Shown here: positions 12,615-36,621 of the stretch, piece after piece | Numbering within the stretch: the first letter of the stretch is position 1 | Layout: the number at the start of each line of letters is the position of its first letter | Source: an archaeon | GTDB lineage: Archaea > Nanobdellota > Nanobdellia > Woesearchaeales > JAADFO01 | Direction: 5' to 3' | Assembly (NCBI GenBank): GCA_043817075.1 | Contig: JBDRHG010000014.1 | Coordinates: 21,989-85,988 of the forward strand | DNA: 64,000 nt | Made by a program: the position numbers and the translations under genes | The notes under the pieces: generated by a model | Told to the model about the DNA's origin: nothing | Databases searched by the model: none | The model's input: the letters and a program-made list of their open reading frames with translations, nothing else

Positions 12615-12887
12615 TCAATCGAAACGCCAGGCCGGATGGCCCCAGGCCAGGAGCAGATCGACGCCTAGAGCCTTGGTCTCGACCGGTACGTCACAGCTGC
12701 CATAACAGGAGCCTAGCCAGAGCAACACTTCGGCGTCAGTCTCCTTCTCGATGGCTGCCTGGATCTCTTCGGCCGCGGGTTTGAGCCCGTCGGGAAGCTG
12801 AATAAGCACTTTCTTGGCACCGGTGGACTTGATCTCATCCACGGCACGGCCTATCTCCAGGTCATACTGCAAGTCTGCTGCATGCAT
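12615..12887 (-). pseudogene. dph2: dph2 (2-(3-amino-3-carboxypropyl)histidine synthase) N-terminal fragment, about 90 aa only
   Basis: DLEIGRAVDEIKSTGAKKVLIQLPDGLKPAAEEI...CYGSCDV...LGVDLLLAWGHP matches the first ~85 residues of archaeal Dph2, including the first conserved Cys region. It stops at WRFD*. The following 107 nt are AT-rich promoter-like DNA in front of rpiB, with no continuation in any frame. Confidence 0.55.
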
Positions 12888-12993
12888 AGGATGAAGGAGT
12901 CTCCGGACATTATAAATAGCTTGCGAAACCAGAGATGGAAGGCAACCAGCATGCGACGAAACCCATAAAAACAACTGGATCTTCCCAGAAATC

Positions 12994-13323
12994 ATGACAT
13001 GGGAAGTGCTCATCGACATCATCATCTTCGTAGGATCAGCGATACCGCTCTATCTGGCGGCAAACTTCCTCGGAGGAAAAGCTAGCCTCCTCAAGACGCT
13101 TCTCGTCGCATTCGTCACCGGCATCATCGTCGGGTTCATCCGCAGCCAATTCCAGTTCTTCGGAGGCATCATCGCATTCTTCCTCCTCATCTGGATCTAT
13201 CACGAGATGTTCCGGATCACCTGGCTCAAATCGTTCTTCGTCTGGCTGCTCCAGTTCCTCATCGTGCTGATGTTCTACCTGATCCTGGCATTCTTCCGTC
13301 TAGGGACCAGTTTCATATCATGA
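12994..13323 (+). CDS. hypothetical small membrane protein
   Basis: 109 aa with 3-4 hydrophobic spans. No recognisable family. Confidence 0.5.
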   Translation: MTWEVLIDIIIFVGSAIPLYLAANFLGGKASLLKTLLVAFVTGIIVGFIRSQFQFFGGIIAFFLLIWIYHEMFRITWLKSFFVWLLQFLIVLMFYLILAFFRLGTSFIS

Positions 13324-31668: not shown

Positions 31669-33777
31669 TCAATCCTTTGGCTCTCGCTCCACCGACGATA
31701 TCAGAAGCTCTGCAGCCTCACCATCCTTCTTGACAGAAGACGATACGATACGCAACGCATACCCGAAGAGCGGGGCATCGAGCACAAAAGTCTCGAACTC
31801 ACCACCTTCGCCTGCGACATTGATGCCGAGCTTATCGCGGAGACCCACCAGACGGCCGAGATGATCATTTGTCAACGGAACGCCGAGCCAGGACGCATCA
31901 AGCCCTTCGGCCGCGACCTTAGTCATGACGAAACGGTATCCTTCCCGTAAGAGCGCCCGCATCTCCTGCTCCTGGTCCATATGCCAGAGCGGCGAGAACA
32001 CCTTGAGGTTGAGCTCATCACAGATGCGTTCTATGCGGGTGCGTTGATAGTTGGAGAACAGAGCACCGGTCACCACACCCTGGATGCCATGGCGTCGTTT
32101 CGCCTCGAGCAAAGCGGCCCGAAGATCAGAGAGCTCCTGTTCTTTCTCACCTTTTGTCGCATGCGTCATCAACGGGATGCCCATAGCGTCGGCCTGCATC
32201 CCTGCGAGATCGACGGCGGGCGTGTGGAACATGAAAGAATCCTTGTTCTCACTCTTGACGGTGATGAGGCAACGTACGTCGTAGTTGAGACGTTTCTGAA
32301 TATGAAGGGCATAGACTGAATCTTTACCCGAAGAGAAGAGCACGCCCAGAGGGAGCTGAGGAATATCTGCGAGGGATGCGAGGTACGAAGATTTCGACTT
32401 GAAGCCTGCCTTCTTCGAACGGGTCTCGATGAGTTTGCTCATGCCGCTGCTGTATTGCGCTGCTGAACGCTTGGCAGCACTGAGGCCTTCGGGAAGGTCG
32501 AGGGCGACCGCCGCGTCCCGGAGCAGCTGTTTTGGGGCGACCCCCAACTTCTCTTTCGAGGGGATGGAGAACATATGAGAGACCAACGCATGGTCAAGAT
32601 AAGGTAGACGCAATTCTATATGGTGGGACATGGAGATGACATCATCCCGGTAGAGATCGCGTTCATAGATCCGTCGAAGATTGGATAGCGAATCTTCATT
32701 GACCGCAGGGTATACCCGCATCCGGCCATAGCCTGCGAAAAGGTCGTCTGCACCGAGACCTGAGTACATGACCTTTACATTGTCGCGTTTCGCGGCCTGG
32801 AGCGCAAAATGCAGCGTCGAGGCCACTTCGACCTTGACTGGGTCCTGGCTGCTGATGAGCCGCATGATCCCTGGAATCGCGCGGGCGAGCTGGGCCTCGC
32901 TCACCATGATGACCTTTAGAGGGATGCCGATCTTGGCTGCCGCCTCTTTGGCCTGCCTGACGACAGCCTCTTTTCCTTTGGTGGCCGTCAGATAGCCGGT
33001 GATGTCAGCCCCATGAGCGGTCAGCAGATGCGCAATGAGGCTTGAGTCCAGGCCACCCGAGAAAAGGACGCCCATCTTGCGACCGCTGATCCGCTTCTTT
33101 ACCGCGTCATCGAGGAGACCGGCGATGCGAAGGATATCTGTTGAGTGGTGGGACCCTATAGGAAGAGAAAAGAAAGGCAGCGAGTAGAAAGCGGTCTTGC
33201 CGGTCTGCTGGGAGAAGACCAACGCTTTTCGGGGATTGAGCTCTTCAGGCAGTTCGCCATGACCGATGAGAGGGGTACGCTCAGAGGAGAACCTAAGACC
33301 TTCTTTTCCAGCGCTGAACCACAGGGGCTTTACCCCGAGCCGGTCCCGAGCGAGGAGGACATATTGAAACTTCCGATGATAGACGAAGAAAGAGAACACA
33401 CCATCGAGCTTGGAAAGGAGCGTATCGATCACAGATGCCCGCACCTGTTCAGCCTTCACCGAGCTGAAGGCTTCGACACAGAGGCCTGCGAGGAGCTCTG
33501 CGTCGTTCTCTGCTTGGATGCCATGCCGCTTCGCCAGTCTTTCCCAATTATATATCTCGCAATTGGCACCGACCACGATATCATCACGGACGATGGGTTG
33601 CTGGACGTGGGAGACGATGGCATGCAAACAATGACCGAGATACGCGTCCCCGCCGACGAATGTGCCGCTGCCGTCGAGACCACGATGCTTCAGCGCCGCG
33701 AGGCCACGTTCTAGATCAGTCCGACCATCGGACCGTTCTACATTTCCACCATCCACAATGCCGAAGATGCCGCACAT
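31669..33777 (-). CDS. asparagine synthase (glutamine-hydrolysing) fused to a C-terminal Dph6-type (MJ0570/ATP_bind_4) PP-loop domain
   Basis: Start MCGIFGI provides the Ntn Cys2. First PP-loop is VLFSGGLDSS in the AsnB synthetase domain. The second module GVLFSSGKDSVYAL ... GALFSNYQRTRIERIC ... FSPLWH ... GEGGEFETFVLDAPLF is the diphthine-ammonia ligase type domain. Confidence 0.8.
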   Translation of the reverse strand: MCGIFGIVDGGNVERSDGRTDLERGLAALKHRGLDGSGTFVGGDAYLGHCLHAIVSHVQQPIVRDDIVVGANCEIYNWERLAKRHGIQAENDAELLAGLCVEAFSSVKAEQVRASVIDTLLSKLDGVFSFFVYHRKFQYVLLARDRLGVKPLWFSAGKEGLRFSSERTPLIGHGELPEELNPRKALVFSQQTGKTAFYSLPFFSLPIGSHHSTDILRIAGLLDDAVKKRISGRKMGVLFSGGLDSSLIAHLLTAHGADITGYLTATKGKEAVVRQAKEAAAKIGIPLKVIMVSEAQLARAIPGIMRLISSQDPVKVEVASTLHFALQAAKRDNVKVMYSGLGADDLFAGYGRMRVYPAVNEDSLSNLRRIYERDLYRDDVISMSHHIELRLPYLDHALVSHMFSIPSKEKLGVAPKQLLRDAAVALDLPEGLSAAKRSAAQYSSGMSKLIETRSKKAGFKSKSSYLASLADIPQLPLGVLFSSGKDSVYALHIQKRLNYDVRCLITVKSENKDSFMFHTPAVDLAGMQADAMGIPLMTHATKGEKEQELSDLRAALLEAKRRHGIQGVVTGALFSNYQRTRIERICDELNLKVFSPLWHMDQEQEMRALLREGYRFVMTKVAAEGLDASWLGVPLTNDHLGRLVGLRDKLGINVAGEGGEFETFVLDAPLFGYALRIVSSSVKKDGEAAELLISSVEREPKD

Positions 33778-33903
33778 CCCTTGTGCAGAGGTCCTGGAGT
33801 ATATAAAGGTTGCAGCACGGAGACCCAGGAGAATGATATCAGACCGGATGTCGGGGCAGGACCCAGGCAACATTTAAATAGGCCTCGTCCTCACCGACCA
33901 TTG

Positions 33904-36621
33904 ATGAAAAAAGAGGTTTATCGTCAACCCCTTGAGGTGGTGCTGTCCCAAGTAGGTGTGTCTCCAGAGACCGGGCTCTCCAAGGACGAGGCCAAACGAC
34001 GTCTCATCTCCCACGGACCGAACATCTCGGTCCAAGAACAGCCTGTCTCCGCATGGAAGATCCTTCTCCGTCAGTTCAAGAGCTTCATCATCTATGTGCT
34101 TCTCTTCGCGGCCATCGCGTCGTACGCAATCCGCAGCCATGAGGAATTCTATGTCATCGCCGGCATCATCGTCTTCATCATCATGCTCAGCTTCTTTGAG
34201 GAATACAAGGCGACAAAAGAGATGGAAGCGCTGAGGAAACTCACACCACGCACCGCGCGAGTCATCCGAGACGGTGCCGAAGAAGAGATCCAGATCCAGG
34301 AACTCGTTCCTGGCGACGTCCTGATTCTTCGCCGAGGGGATGTGGCATCGGCCGATTGCAGGGTGATCAGCTCCAACAATCTCGGCGTGGACGAGTCCAT
34401 ACTCACCGGAGAGTCCATGCCTGTCGTAAAAGAAGCCAAGGACATATCCCTCAAAAAACCTATCTCCGAACAGAAAAACATGGTGTTCTCAAGCACACAT
34501 ATCACGAACGGGAACGCCGCATGCCTGGTCGTCGTGACCGGTAAGGAGACCGAGATCGGCGGTATATCGAGCCTGGTCAGCGGAGTCCACAGCGAGACAA
34601 CACCTTTACAGAAGCGACTCGACCGGCTCAGTAAACAGTTCTCTGTCGGCGTGCTCCTCATCTGCACATTACTCTTCCTGTTCGGCATCATACGCGGGCA
34701 GAGCTGGGAATCCGTGCTGCTCCTGGCCGTCGCGGTCGCCGTCTCCGGCATTCCAGAGAGCCTGCCAGCAGTCATCGGCGTTGCGCTGGCCATCGGCATG
34801 AAACGCATGGCAAAACAGGGAGCCATCATCAAAAGGCTGCCAGCGGTCGAGACGCTGGGAACCTGCACAGTCATCTGCACGGACAAGACCGGGACACTGA
34901 CGCAGAACCGGATGGTCATCGAACGGATTTTCACCATAGATGATGAGATCAACGTGACAGGCTCCGGCTTGACGCCGAAAGGGCTCTTCATGCGCGAGAA
35001 GGAGATGGTCGATCCCAAGAAGCACCAATCGCTATCGAAGATCCTTGAGATCGGCACGCTGTGCAACAATGCATCGATCATCAAGAGGTCGAAAGAGTGG
35101 CATGTGGACGGCGAGTCCACTGAAGGGGCGCTCATCGTCATGGCAAAGAAGGCCGGCATCGAACGCAACACCATGCACGAAAAATTCCCTCGGCTGCATG
35201 AACACCCGTTCGATCCTGACCGCAAATGCATGAGCTCGGTACATAAGGTCAAGAACAAGGCCATCGTCTACGCCAAGGGCGCACCAGAGATGTTGCTGAA
35301 GAAATCCACACATTACCTCGACGGCGGGACCGTACGGAAACTGACACCCCTCATCGTAAATAAGATCATCAACAAGACAGATGAATTCGCGTCATCCGGC
35401 CGTCGCGTGCTTGGGCTCGCCTACAAAGAGCATAAAGGGAAGACGTATGAGCTGCGTCATGTGGAATCATCCTTGGTGTTCGCGGGATTGGTGTCGATGA
35501 GGGACCCGCCATCGGTGTCGGCGTTCTCCGCGGTACGCATGTGCAAAGAGGCAGGCATCAAACCGATCATGATCACTGGCGATAATGTCGCGACAGCCAA
35601 GGCCATCGCTGAAGAGCTCGGGATATGGGAAGAGGGCAATGCGGTGCTCACAGGAAACCAGCTAGACCGCCTGTCGGACCAACGGTTCACGCATATCATC
35701 GAGCACGTGACGGTGTACGCGCGCACGACGCCCAAGCATAAGCTTCGCATCGTCCAGGCATTGCAGACTGTGGGCCACATCGTGGCGATGACCGGAGACG
35801 GCGTCAATGACGCTCCCGCGCTCAAGAAGGCTGACATCGGTGTCGCCATGGGAAAGGACAGCACTGAGGTAGCAAAGGAAGCGGCGGAGATGGTGATCAT
35901 GGACAATAATTTCGCCACCATCGTGGCCGCGGTGCGCGAAGGCCGCACCATATTCGAGAACATCAGGAAATTCCTCTACTACCTCCTAGCAGGCAACTTC
36001 TCCGAGGTCATCCTCATCTTCATCGCCGCATTGCTCGGCATCGTGCCTCCGCTGACGCCCCTCATGATCCTCTTCATCAATCTCGTCACCAGCGACATCC
36101 CTGCAATAGGGTTATGCATGGAGAAACCAAAAGAGCACATCATGCAGGAGAAACCGAGGAATCCACGCGAAGGCATCATGACAGAATATCTCTTCCTCAA
36201 GATCGCTGGAGTGGTCCCGATCATGGTGCTCGGCGCCATCAGCCTGTATCTATGGGAATTGGTCATCGTCGGCGGAGATCTCGCACGTGCGCAGACATTG
36301 GCCTTCGTCGCCATCATCGTGTTCGAGCTCTTCCACGTGTTCAATGCAAAAAGTTTCACGAAATCCGCCTTCTCGAAGGACCTAGGGGCCAACCCATATA
36401 TCTTCGTCGGCGTCGGCATCTCGATAGCGGCCACATTGCTGACCGTGTATTGGAGGCCTCTCGGTGCGTTGTTCGGCACCGTGCCGCTCTCGCTCGTGGA
36501 ATGGCTTTTTGTCCTCTTCATCGGAAGCATCGTGCTCCTGATCGTCGAGGTAGAGAAGACCATGGTCGCCACTGAGATCAAGGAGAGGGATAAGATGGAG
36601 ATCTATCCGACAAGAGGCTGA
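33904..36621 (+). CDS. P-type cation-transporting ATPase (type II, Ca2+/cation family)
   Basis: TGES, phosphorylation site ICTDKTGTLTQN, MITGDN and TGDGVNDAPALKKADIG, with 10 TM-like spans. Start set at MKKEVYRQPLE with a TTTAAATA box about 25 nt upstream. Confidence 0.9.
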   Translation: MKKEVYRQPLEVVLSQVGVSPETGLSKDEAKRRLISHGPNISVQEQPVSAWKILLRQFKSFIIYVLLFAAIASYAIRSHEEFYVIAGIIVFIIMLSFFEEYKATKEMEALRKLTPRTARVIRDGAEEEIQIQELVPGDVLILRRGDVASADCRVISSNNLGVDESILTGESMPVVKEAKDISLKKPISEQKNMVFSSTHITNGNAACLVVVTGKETEIGGISSLVSGVHSETTPLQKRLDRLSKQFSVGVLLICTLLFLFGIIRGQSWESVLLLAVAVAVSGIPESLPAVIGVALAIGMKRMAKQGAIIKRLPAVETLGTCTVICTDKTGTLTQNRMVIERIFTIDDEINVTGSGLTPKGLFMREKEMVDPKKHQSLSKILEIGTLCNNASIIKRSKEWHVDGESTEGALIVMAKKAGIERNTMHEKFPRLHEHPFDPDRKCMSSVHKVKNKAIVYAKGAPEMLLKKSTHYLDGGTVRKLTPLIVNKIINKTDEFASSGRRVLGLAYKEHKGKTYELRHVESSLVFAGLVSMRDPPSVSAFSAVRMCKEAGIKPIMITGDNVATAKAIAEELGIWEEGNAVLTGNQLDRLSDQRFTHIIEHVTVYARTTPKHKLRIVQALQTVGHIVAMTGDGVNDAPALKKADIGVAMGKDSTEVAKEAAEMVIMDNNFATIVAAVREGRTIFENIRKFLYYLLAGNFSEVILIFIAALLGIVPPLTPLMILFINLVTSDIPAIGLCMEKPKEHIMQEKPRNPREGIMTEYLFLKIAGVVPIMVLGAISLYLWELVIVGGDLARAQTLAFVAIIVFELFHVFNAKSFTKSAFSKDLGANPYIFVGVGISIAATLLTVYWRPLGALFGTVPLSLVEWLFVLFIGSIVLLIVEVEKTMVATEIKERDKMEIYPTRG

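Follow-up and report, generated by a model that had tools for sequence, protein, structure and literature searches.

Known Dph6 enzymes and their fusions

Diphthamide on elongation factor 2 (EF-2) is conserved across archaea and eukaryotes, and the last step of its synthesis is catalyzed by Dph6 (diphthine--ammonia ligase), which converts diphthine, ATP and NH3 to diphthamide, AMP and PPi. Dph2, Dph5 and Dph6 are, to our knowledge, the only enzymes of this pathway known in archaea, and the sole reconstitution of the amidation used yeast Dph6 supplied with free ammonium. Here we analyze a gene of a Woesearchaeota-like member of the DPANN archaea that codes for a protein of 702 residues, in which a class-II N-terminal nucleophile (Ntn) glutaminase (GAT-II) and an asparagine synthetase (AsnB)-like PP-loop domain precede a complete Dph6 domain. 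The gene lies in a stretch of 64,000 nucleotides (assembly GCA_043817075.1, contig JBDRHG010000014.1, positions 21,989 to 85,988), hereafter the window, whose own numbering is used throughout.

The same order of three domains in one polypeptide was described by de Crécy-Lagard et al. in 2012 (Biol Direct 7:32, PMC3541065), who reported COG0367/AsnB, composed of GAT-II and an Asn_Synthase_B_C PP-loop, at the N-terminal side of DUF71 in Methanohalophilus mahii, Methanosalsum zhilinae and 'Ca. Nanosalinarum J07AB56', and who proposed the hydrolysis of glutamine as the source of NH3 for the amidation of diphthine. The reviewer L. Aravind pointed out that this proposal did not say whether the ammonia is used in the AsnB-like PP-loop domain or in that of Dph6, nor what the former does, and the wording finally adopted was that of a bifunctional protein whose glutaminase feeds an asparagine synthetase and Dph6 (PMC3541065). 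The function that we propose for our gene is the one proposed for these fusions, and the protein aligns end to end with homologs from Methanolobus, Methanohalophilus and Nanosalina at 38-44% identity. It differs from the 2012 examples in belonging to a DPANN archaeon and in having no database match above 52% identity; in addition, its glutaminase is fully intact, whereas Methanohalophilus sp. RSK, whose genus was among those reported in 2012, has a glutaminase that can no longer be recognized in its N-terminal half.

Stand-alone Dph6 proteins are represented by PF0828 of Pyrococcus furiosus (PDB 3RJZ, 3RK0 and 3RK1) and PH1257 of P. horikoshii (2D13), single-domain proteins of about 220 residues that match the C-terminal 225 residues of our protein (E = 1e-53 in the sequence search, with 3rjz and 2d13) and share with it an SGGKDS-type PP-loop and the EGGEFET motif. 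In a Foldseek comparison the Dph6 domain superposes on 3rk1 with a TM-score of 0.95-0.96 and a root-mean-square deviation of 1.2 Å; in comparison with the Pyrococcus proteins, about 475 residues, comprising the glutaminase and a second PP-loop domain, have been added at the N-terminus. Yeast Dph6 (YLR143W), the only one for which amidation activity has been shown, carries two RidA/YjgF-like domains C-terminal to its DUF71 domain (PMC3585130; PMC3541065), and these RidA domains have been proposed to release NH3 (PMC3541065). Our protein is likewise a Dph6 catalytic domain fused to a module able to deliver ammonia, but the accessory module is a different one and stands at the opposite end, and eukaryotes also need Dph7.

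The long-form Dph6 gene

In the reading that we favor with moderate confidence, this gene is the diphthamide synthetase Dph6 of the organism in a long form, in which ammonia from the glutaminase would pass by way of the AsnB-like domain to Dph6. We base it on the identities of the domains, the states of individual residues, the distribution of the architecture and the finding that the genome has no other Dph6. The gene and its parts are as follows.

31669..33777, minus strand: long-form Dph6 gene, 702 codons plus stop, in the order GAT-II, AsnB-like PP-loop, Dph6
33178..33777, minus strand: class-II (Ntn) glutaminase domain, residues 1-200, from GATase_7, residue mapping and family conservation
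32413..33135, minus strand: AsnB-like PP-loop module, here called ASNC, residues ~215-455, from Pfam, NCBIfam and residue mapping
32353..32412, minus strand: linker, residues ~456-475 (...KKAGFKSKSSYLASLADIPQLP), where stand-alone ASNC-only proteins end and separate Dph6 proteins start
31672..32352, minus strand: Dph6 (diphthine--ammonia ligase, DUF71/MJ0570), residues 476-702, from TIGR03679, PDB and fold matches

The translation is a single chain that contains all the strings quoted in the sequence-only reading (MCGIFG, SGGLDS, SSGKDS, NYQRTRIERIC, PLWH and GEGGEFETFV). That reading knew of no published example of the architecture, which is nevertheless not new: apart from its publication in 2012, our check of domain-architecture frequency found relatives in more than 500 species-level genomes (a lower bound, from a scan of one genome per species), with the fusion in 23 of 41 Methanosarcinaceae and in 35 of the 101 genomes sampled from its own class, and many homologs from Woesearchaeota, Nanoarchaeota, Diapherotrites and Methanolobus are already named 'diphthine--ammonia ligase' in public annotation. 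The fusion is thus an ordinary member of a known enzyme type, widespread among small DPANN archaea and certain methanogens. In a collection of 5.8 billion proteins, the best 120 matches are all 640-750 residues long, have the same Pfam composition, are 41-52% identical to our protein and cover 91-100% of it (96-100% in all but two). The residue conservation given below refers to these 120 three-domain homologs unless another set is named.

Dph6 domain and predicted structure

The C-terminal part is a complete Dph6 module, as had been proposed from the sequence. Diphthami_syn_2 (PF01902) matches residues 479-693 (E = 1.2e-58; 198.7 bits against a cut-off of 23.2), and the protein exceeds the curated equivalog threshold of the NCBIfam model TIGR03679, Dph6_archaeal (273.6 bits against 197.3). 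The PP-loop SSGKDS corresponds to residues 482-487 (32317-32334) and EGGEFE to residues 657-662 (31792-31809), within the patterns SxGKDS and EGGE(F/Y)E that are invariant across the family.

A structural model computed with AlphaFold2 from the 120-sequence alignment has a mean predicted local distance difference test (pLDDT) score of 94.5 and a predicted template modeling (pTM) score of 0.92, and the linker is also modeled confidently (pLDDT >90). Because of these values, the three domains are predicted to form one rigid body in which Dph6 is docked rather than loosely tethered. The first two domains match AsnB and ASNS structures with TM-scores of 0.75-0.80 (1ct9 at 0.80), and neither Foldseek nor the sequence search found a solved structure spanning all three domains.

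Glutaminase domain

The presence of an Ntn glutaminase starting with MCGIFG was confirmed. GATase_7 and GATase_6 match residues 35-170, the former with 59.4 bits against a cut-off of 25 (Pfam), and the nucleophile Cys2 (33772-33774) directly follows the initiator Met. Residues were mapped onto E. coli AsnB (1CT9), whose residue numbers as used here differ by one from the chain numbering of that entry, and onto two canonical AsnBs encoded elsewhere in this genome. Besides the nucleophile, our protein has R32, N72-C-E74 and D92; the equivalents of AsnB Cys1, R30, N74, E76 and D98 are conserved in 98-100% of the homologs (N72, E74 and D92 in 99-100%), which points to a glutaminase that is under selection.

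The glutamine-binding set of AsnB (Arg49, Asn74, Glu76 and Asp98) is nevertheless incomplete, with Arg49 missing. In place of the canonical H-x-R-L motif our protein has H49-C-L-H52 (33622-33633) and the family has H-x-L-H; the equivalent of Arg49 is Leu51, with Leu in 119 of the 120 homologs. The position next to it is variable, and no Arg is conserved in either register of the alignment.

The AsnB-like PP-loop module

The module called ASNC has the fold and the PP-loop of AsnB, as the sequence-only reading had stated, but it lacks what would make it the asparagine synthetase domain that this reading saw in it. Asn_synthase matches residues 218-360 and a second stretch (E = 1e-38, Pfam), whereas the scores remain below both AsnB equivalog thresholds of NCBIfam (TIGR01536, 220.3 against 267.1; NF006949, 185.1 against 499). 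With E. coli AsnB (1CT9) and human ASNS (6GQ3, 8SUE) the first two domains share the Ntn glutaminase and PP-loop fold, the five glutaminase residues listed above, and several synthetase residues: the PP-loop SGGLDS (residues 240-245, 33043-33060; SGGxDS is invariant in 120 of 120 homologs), D374 and R377 (equivalents of D384 and R387), and E388-L-R390-x-P-x-L-D, the equivalent of the tunnel motif E-x-R-x-P-F-L-D. D374, R377 and D378 are invariant, including in proteins that have no glutaminase and in those that consist of ASNC only.

Unlike AsnB, in addition to the loss of Arg49, the protein has SGLG (32752-32763) instead of the motif SGEG, so that Leu341 occupies the position of Glu348, a residue that is needed in AsnB for the formation of beta-aspartyl-AMP, as known from AsnB mutagenesis. 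This position is L, V, S or I in all 120 homologs and acidic in none, whereas Asp is found there in both canonical AsnBs of this organism, which also keep the equivalent of Arg49. The C-terminal ~100 residues of AsnB are absent from the module, and our protein has V-K-V-(G/E) where the E. coli and human enzymes have the loop T-T-I-R; we had considered the loss of this loop as a diagnostic character against asparagine synthesis, but downgraded it, given that in our alignment the canonical long-form AsnBs of this genome do not have the motif either. Because the acidic equivalent of Glu348 has been lost, we consider that the middle domain does not make asparagine; the AsnB-like part appears not to be an asparagine synthetase, and the protein not to be a functional asparagine synthase fusion.

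In human ASNS, Glu-364 (the equivalent of E. coli Glu348) and Leu-415, which belongs to E-L-R-V-P-F-L-D, line the ammonia tunnel by the synthetase site (PMC11615228). Among the 79 loci described below, conservation of the E and the R in E-x-R-x-P-F-L-D is confined to forms with a glutaminase, which fits a role in the tunnel or in the coupling of the two sites. Regarding classification, ASNC-only proteins are plain members of PF00733 and have no curated family of their own; DUF7411 (PF24167) and PRK14561 were tried as the family of the middle domain and rejected, with only weak matches at the level of the PP-loop.

A sister clade of the module is formed by archaeal 'asparagine synthase-related proteins' of ~450-535 residues with the composition GAT-ASNC (loci L108-L113 and L122-L126, from Methanoperedens- and Methanosarcina-type genomes), here called group B as opposed to group A, which includes our module. 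Group B likewise has no equivalents of Arg49 and Glu348 (its motifs are NVLLK and SGQG), but none of the loci examined shows it fused with Dph6 or next to it. An extension of the Dph6 link to group B was rejected: its neighborhoods show a proC-like gene, which it adjoins in the Methanoperedens-type loci L108-L113, and no dph genes. Within Methanosarcinaceae, group B occurs only in genomes without the Dph6-linked module of group A.

Distribution and architectural variants

The relatives span Woesearchaeota, Nanoarchaeota, Iainarchaeota, Micrarchaeota, Altiarchaeota, Nanohaloarchaea, Methanosarcinaceae, ANME-1 and metagenome-assembled genomes (MAGs) of Halobacteria. We surveyed the architectures with module-specific hidden Markov models in 79 loci and found five forms, the majority being GAT-ASNC-Dph6. 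The others are a three-domain form whose glutaminase has degenerated (an ANME-1/Halobacteria clade has lost Cys1, and Methanohalophilus sp. RSK is the case mentioned above), ASNC-Dph6 without glutaminase (7 loci), stand-alone GAT-ASNC, and finally Dph6 alone and a divergently arranged pair of ASNC and Dph6 genes. In every form the PP-loop of ASNC is intact. We also tallied 101 high-quality genomes of the same class, with counts taken from the matches listed for each genome:

35 of 101: three-domain fusion
7 of 101: ASNC-Dph6 fusion without glutaminase
38 of 101: Dph6 and a separate ASNC-only gene (~290-320 aa)
3 of 101: Dph6 and a separate GAT-ASNC gene
2 of 101: ASNC match listed, Dph6 not among the matches listed
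16 of 101: Dph6 only among the matches listed

Of the 16 genomes in the last row, 11 have one match in total and thus apparently Dph6 alone, and five have further matches beyond those listed. A glutaminase accompanies Dph6 in ~38% of these genomes and the AsnB-like PP-loop occurs in at least 85 of 101. Dph6 is present in all 101 genomes sampled, and for this reason we judged the phylogenetic co-occurrence of ASNC and Dph6 to be weak evidence; the evidence of linkage is that of fusion and adjacency. ASNC-only proteins score 198-326 bits against the ASNC profile and end at the same K-x-x-Y-L linker. Adjacent or overlapping ASNC and Dph6 genes, as well as divergent pairs, are found in several DPANN genomes, and among the 41 Methanosarcinaceae, in addition to the 23 with the fusion, eight have overlapping GAT-ASNC and Dph6 gene pairs and about 10 (Methanosarcina-type) have a stand-alone Dph6 with an unlinked group-B AsnB-like protein. 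In other genomes ASNC and Dph6 stand alone and unlinked, which completes a Rosetta-stone pattern.

What this survey adds to the earlier description is that the AsnB-like PP-loop, rather than the glutaminase, appears to be the constant companion of Dph6, be it fused, adjacent or separate. The view that Dph6 normally stands alone, held in the sequence-only reading, holds only in part, since in this class at least 85 of the 101 genomes pair it with an AsnB-like module.

In the tree of Dph6 domains all fusions fall in one clade (support 99), with the forms without glutaminase scattered inside it, and well-supported branches force at least four losses of the glutaminase. Canonical AsnB, group A and group B come apart in the ASNC tree, where the ASNC-only proteins form a derived clade (support 100). 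The order of the fusion and fission events is tentative because the backbone of this tree is weakly supported.

Genome context and the diphthamide pathway

The assembly comprises 1.52 Mb in 26 contigs and is 89.9% complete. Our search for separate copies of the component genes, which had been suggested as a check, identified the fusion as the sole PF01902 homolog of the genome and two separate, canonical, full-length AsnBs of 638 and 633 residues on another contig (C4). The fusion is also the sole Dph6 in four of five further fusion genomes (Methanolobus bombayensis, Methanohalophilus sp. RSK, Nanosalina VS9-1 and a Micrarchaeota MAG); the long-form enzyme is the only Dph6 of many archaea, including cultured strains of Methanolobus and Methanohalophilus. 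AsnRS and GatB of this genome both score above their cut-offs outside the window (contigs C11:3167-4462 and C18:558-1934), which together with the two canonical AsnBs makes the supply of Asn and of Asn-tRNA redundant in a genome of 1.5 Mb.

Profile searches of the genome found EF-2 (1048.8 bits) and Dph5 (299.3 bits). Of Dph2 only an N-terminal fragment was identified, a 136-residue open reading frame (ORF) on the minus strand of the window (12615-13025) that matches only the first ~60 positions of Dph2 profiles. Split Dph2 has been published for DPANN (PMC6143161), and relatives of our organism carry it as an N-terminal part of ~95 residues and a C-terminal part of ~230 residues, the latter being present in the same-genus genome G011; the ORF appears to be the N-terminal half of such a split Dph2. 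Both this split and our trees are in agreement with a Woesearchaeota-type DPANN affiliation of the genome.

In two other DPANN genomes (L114:9027-11267 and L116:8294-10554) three clustered genes code for a Pyr_redox_2 flavoprotein (321 aa), the C-terminal half of Dph2 and a DnaJ-domain protein (179 aa). They follow a stand-alone GAT-ASNC gene of group A at a distance of ~2-3 kb downstream. The company of a J-protein and a reductase next to Dph2 is reminiscent of eukaryotic Dph4 and of the electron supply by Cbr1/Dph3.

Proposed mechanism and alternative readings

In the mechanism that we propose, the N-terminal glutaminase would hydrolyze an amide donor, most likely glutamine, by means of its Cys1, and the ammonia would travel through an AsnB-type inter-domain tunnel into the AsnB-like PP-loop domain. 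This domain, having no equivalent of Glu348, would make no asparagine and would relay the ammonia onward to the active site of the docked Dph6, where the carboxylate of EF-2 diphthine would be adenylated and amidated. The use of glutamine, the channeling and the relay are inferences; a supply of glutamine-derived ammonia to Dph6 from a fused amidotransferase, as the sequence-only reading had suggested, is plausible. The linkage of the module to Dph6 by fusions, overlapping pairs, neighboring pairs and the Rosetta-stone pattern supports this reading. Since the AsnB-like domain has an intact ATP-binding loop and is retained with Dph6 in relatives without glutaminase, it would be more than a remnant, namely a true partner of Dph6 acting as a scaffold, a relay or an ATP-dependent co-catalyst.

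It is important to consider several points that weigh against the long-form diphthamide synthetase as described. First, the Arg that in AsnB binds the alpha-carboxylate of glutamine is the residue replaced by Leu in 119 of the 120 homologs, and because no Arg is conserved in its place, both the identity and the binding mode of the amide donor are uncertain. Second, the glutaminase is absent or degenerate in many relatives that retain ASNC and Dph6; being dispensable, it cannot make channeled ammonia the sole reason for the association. Third, a pure relay role does not explain an intact second PP-loop. Fourth, the C-terminal half of Dph2 was not found in this ~90%-complete assembly with profiles or with probes from the C-terminal domains of five relatives; the missing 10% may contain it. 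Finally, our literature search found no biochemical evidence for any member of the fusion family and no later paper on it, and a search on the AsnB homologs of methanogens returned nothing useful.

The alternative that survives best, although we regard it as rather unlikely, is that the AsnB-like PP-loop is itself catalytic and performs a second ATP-dependent amidation or adenylation coupled to that of Dph6, with EF-2 or another component of translation as conceivable substrates. Its ammonia would come from the glutaminase, or be free where this domain has been lost, and Dph6 would use free ammonia as the stand-alone enzymes do, so that the conserved unit would be ASNC plus Dph6, with the glutaminase as an optional addition to ASNC. 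This would account for the invariance of SGGxDS, D374, R377 and D378 even in proteins without glutaminase, for the derived ASNC-only clade that kept the module after the glutaminase was lost, for the 38 class genomes with Dph6 and a separate ASNC-only gene and the seven with ASNC-Dph6, and for the adjacent and divergent gene pairs; it also agrees with the point of L. Aravind, in that the tunnel of AsnB ends in the site of its cognate PP-loop (PMC3541065). On the other hand, diphthamide has a single amide and no second ATP-dependent step of the pathway is known, the equivalent of the catalytic Glu348 is hydrophobic, and the co-occurrence in the class says little given the universality of Dph6 there. 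About 11 of the 101 high-quality genomes have Dph6 without a detectable ASNC, and Pyrococcus PF0828 and PH1257 are single-domain proteins without a fused ASNC, a comparison that covers fused modules only.

A broader proposal, which we put forward only tentatively, is that group-A ASNC is a previously unrecognized second component of the diphthamide-amidation machinery in DPANN and Methanosarcinaceae, with the two PP-loop modules paired as fused, operonic or separate genes and with an optional glutaminase that was lost or inactivated several times. If true, it would answer the question raised in 2012 about the purpose of the second PP-loop, and the archaeal synthesis of diphthamide would not always be a three-enzyme pathway.

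We consider it improbable that the protein is bifunctional in the sense of the 2012 wording, with one glutaminase feeding both a genuine asparagine synthetase that makes free Asn and Dph6. The GAT plus Asn_synthase architecture, the AsnB-like PP-loop, the match to 1ct9 and the retained equivalents of D384 and R387 are those expected for it, and the finding that Methanosarcinaceae have either the group-A module or the group-B protein, not both, would fit a shared housekeeping function. However, the position of Glu348 is acidic in none of the 120 homologs while both canonical AsnBs of this genome keep the acidic residue and Arg49, the scores fall under both equivalog cut-offs, and two full-length AsnBs are already available to the organism. 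In addition, two complete relatives, G029 (with the fusion) and G038 (with ASNC-only and Dph6), keep the module and have GatB without AsnRS, and would therefore make Asn on tRNA; the module is also kept in very small DPANN genomes of 0.6-1 Mb.

That the fusion is an artefact of assembly or a frameshift and the ORF is really two neighboring genes is extremely unlikely: some relatives do have separate ASNC (or GAT-ASNC) and Dph6 genes that overlap by a few codons and that a single-base error could join, but the junction (residues ~455-476, window ~32350-32415) is continuous and in register with the best 120 homologs and likewise in about 59 of the 79 loci, the linker is modeled with confidence, the same-genus genome G011 carries the fusion as a 758-residue ORF, and the nearest tree neighbors (L012 and L013), which cluster with our protein in both trees (support 99 for Dph6 and 94 for ASNC), are also fused.

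Start codon, promoter and neighboring genes

The ORF is on the minus strand, which the sequence-only reading had left unstated. It extends over 31669..33873, with 734 residues from its furthest ATG and 702 from MCGIFG (31669..33777), and is uninterrupted across its span according to both the ORF list and the translation. Upstream of the second of these starts lies the following element.

33800-33807, minus strand: TATA box TTTATATA, ~26 nt upstream of the ATG at 33777; its sequence was read directly and its function as a promoter is presumed

The in-frame ATG at 33873 lies beyond this box. An Ntn glutaminase requires its Cys nucleophile directly after the initiator Met, and at least 90% of the homologs in the 120-sequence alignment start with MCG; for these reasons, together with the position of the box, we take the 702-residue form to be the right one. 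The spacing between the box and the ATG at 33777 implies a leaderless or short-leader transcript. The intergenic region (33778-33905) is short and divergent, separates the fusion gene from a P-type ATPase gene and holds two TATA-like boxes, one per direction, TTTATATA and TATTTAAA (~33873-33880). The neighbors of the fusion in the window code for a GNAT protein, a UbiA-like protein, the P-type ATPase and a Kef-type antiporter, which show no link to the pathway.

With respect to the database labels of the relatives, two contigs, L032 (DATGWN010000068.1) and L087 (CAMTXJ010000008.1), are assigned to MAGs of Acidobacteriota and Peregrinibacteria but carry archaeal-type Dph6 or fusion genes that are nested among DPANN, and they are probably mis-binned. 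Many labels of 'uncultured Methanosarcinales' in third-party annotation (TPA) records also appear unreliable.

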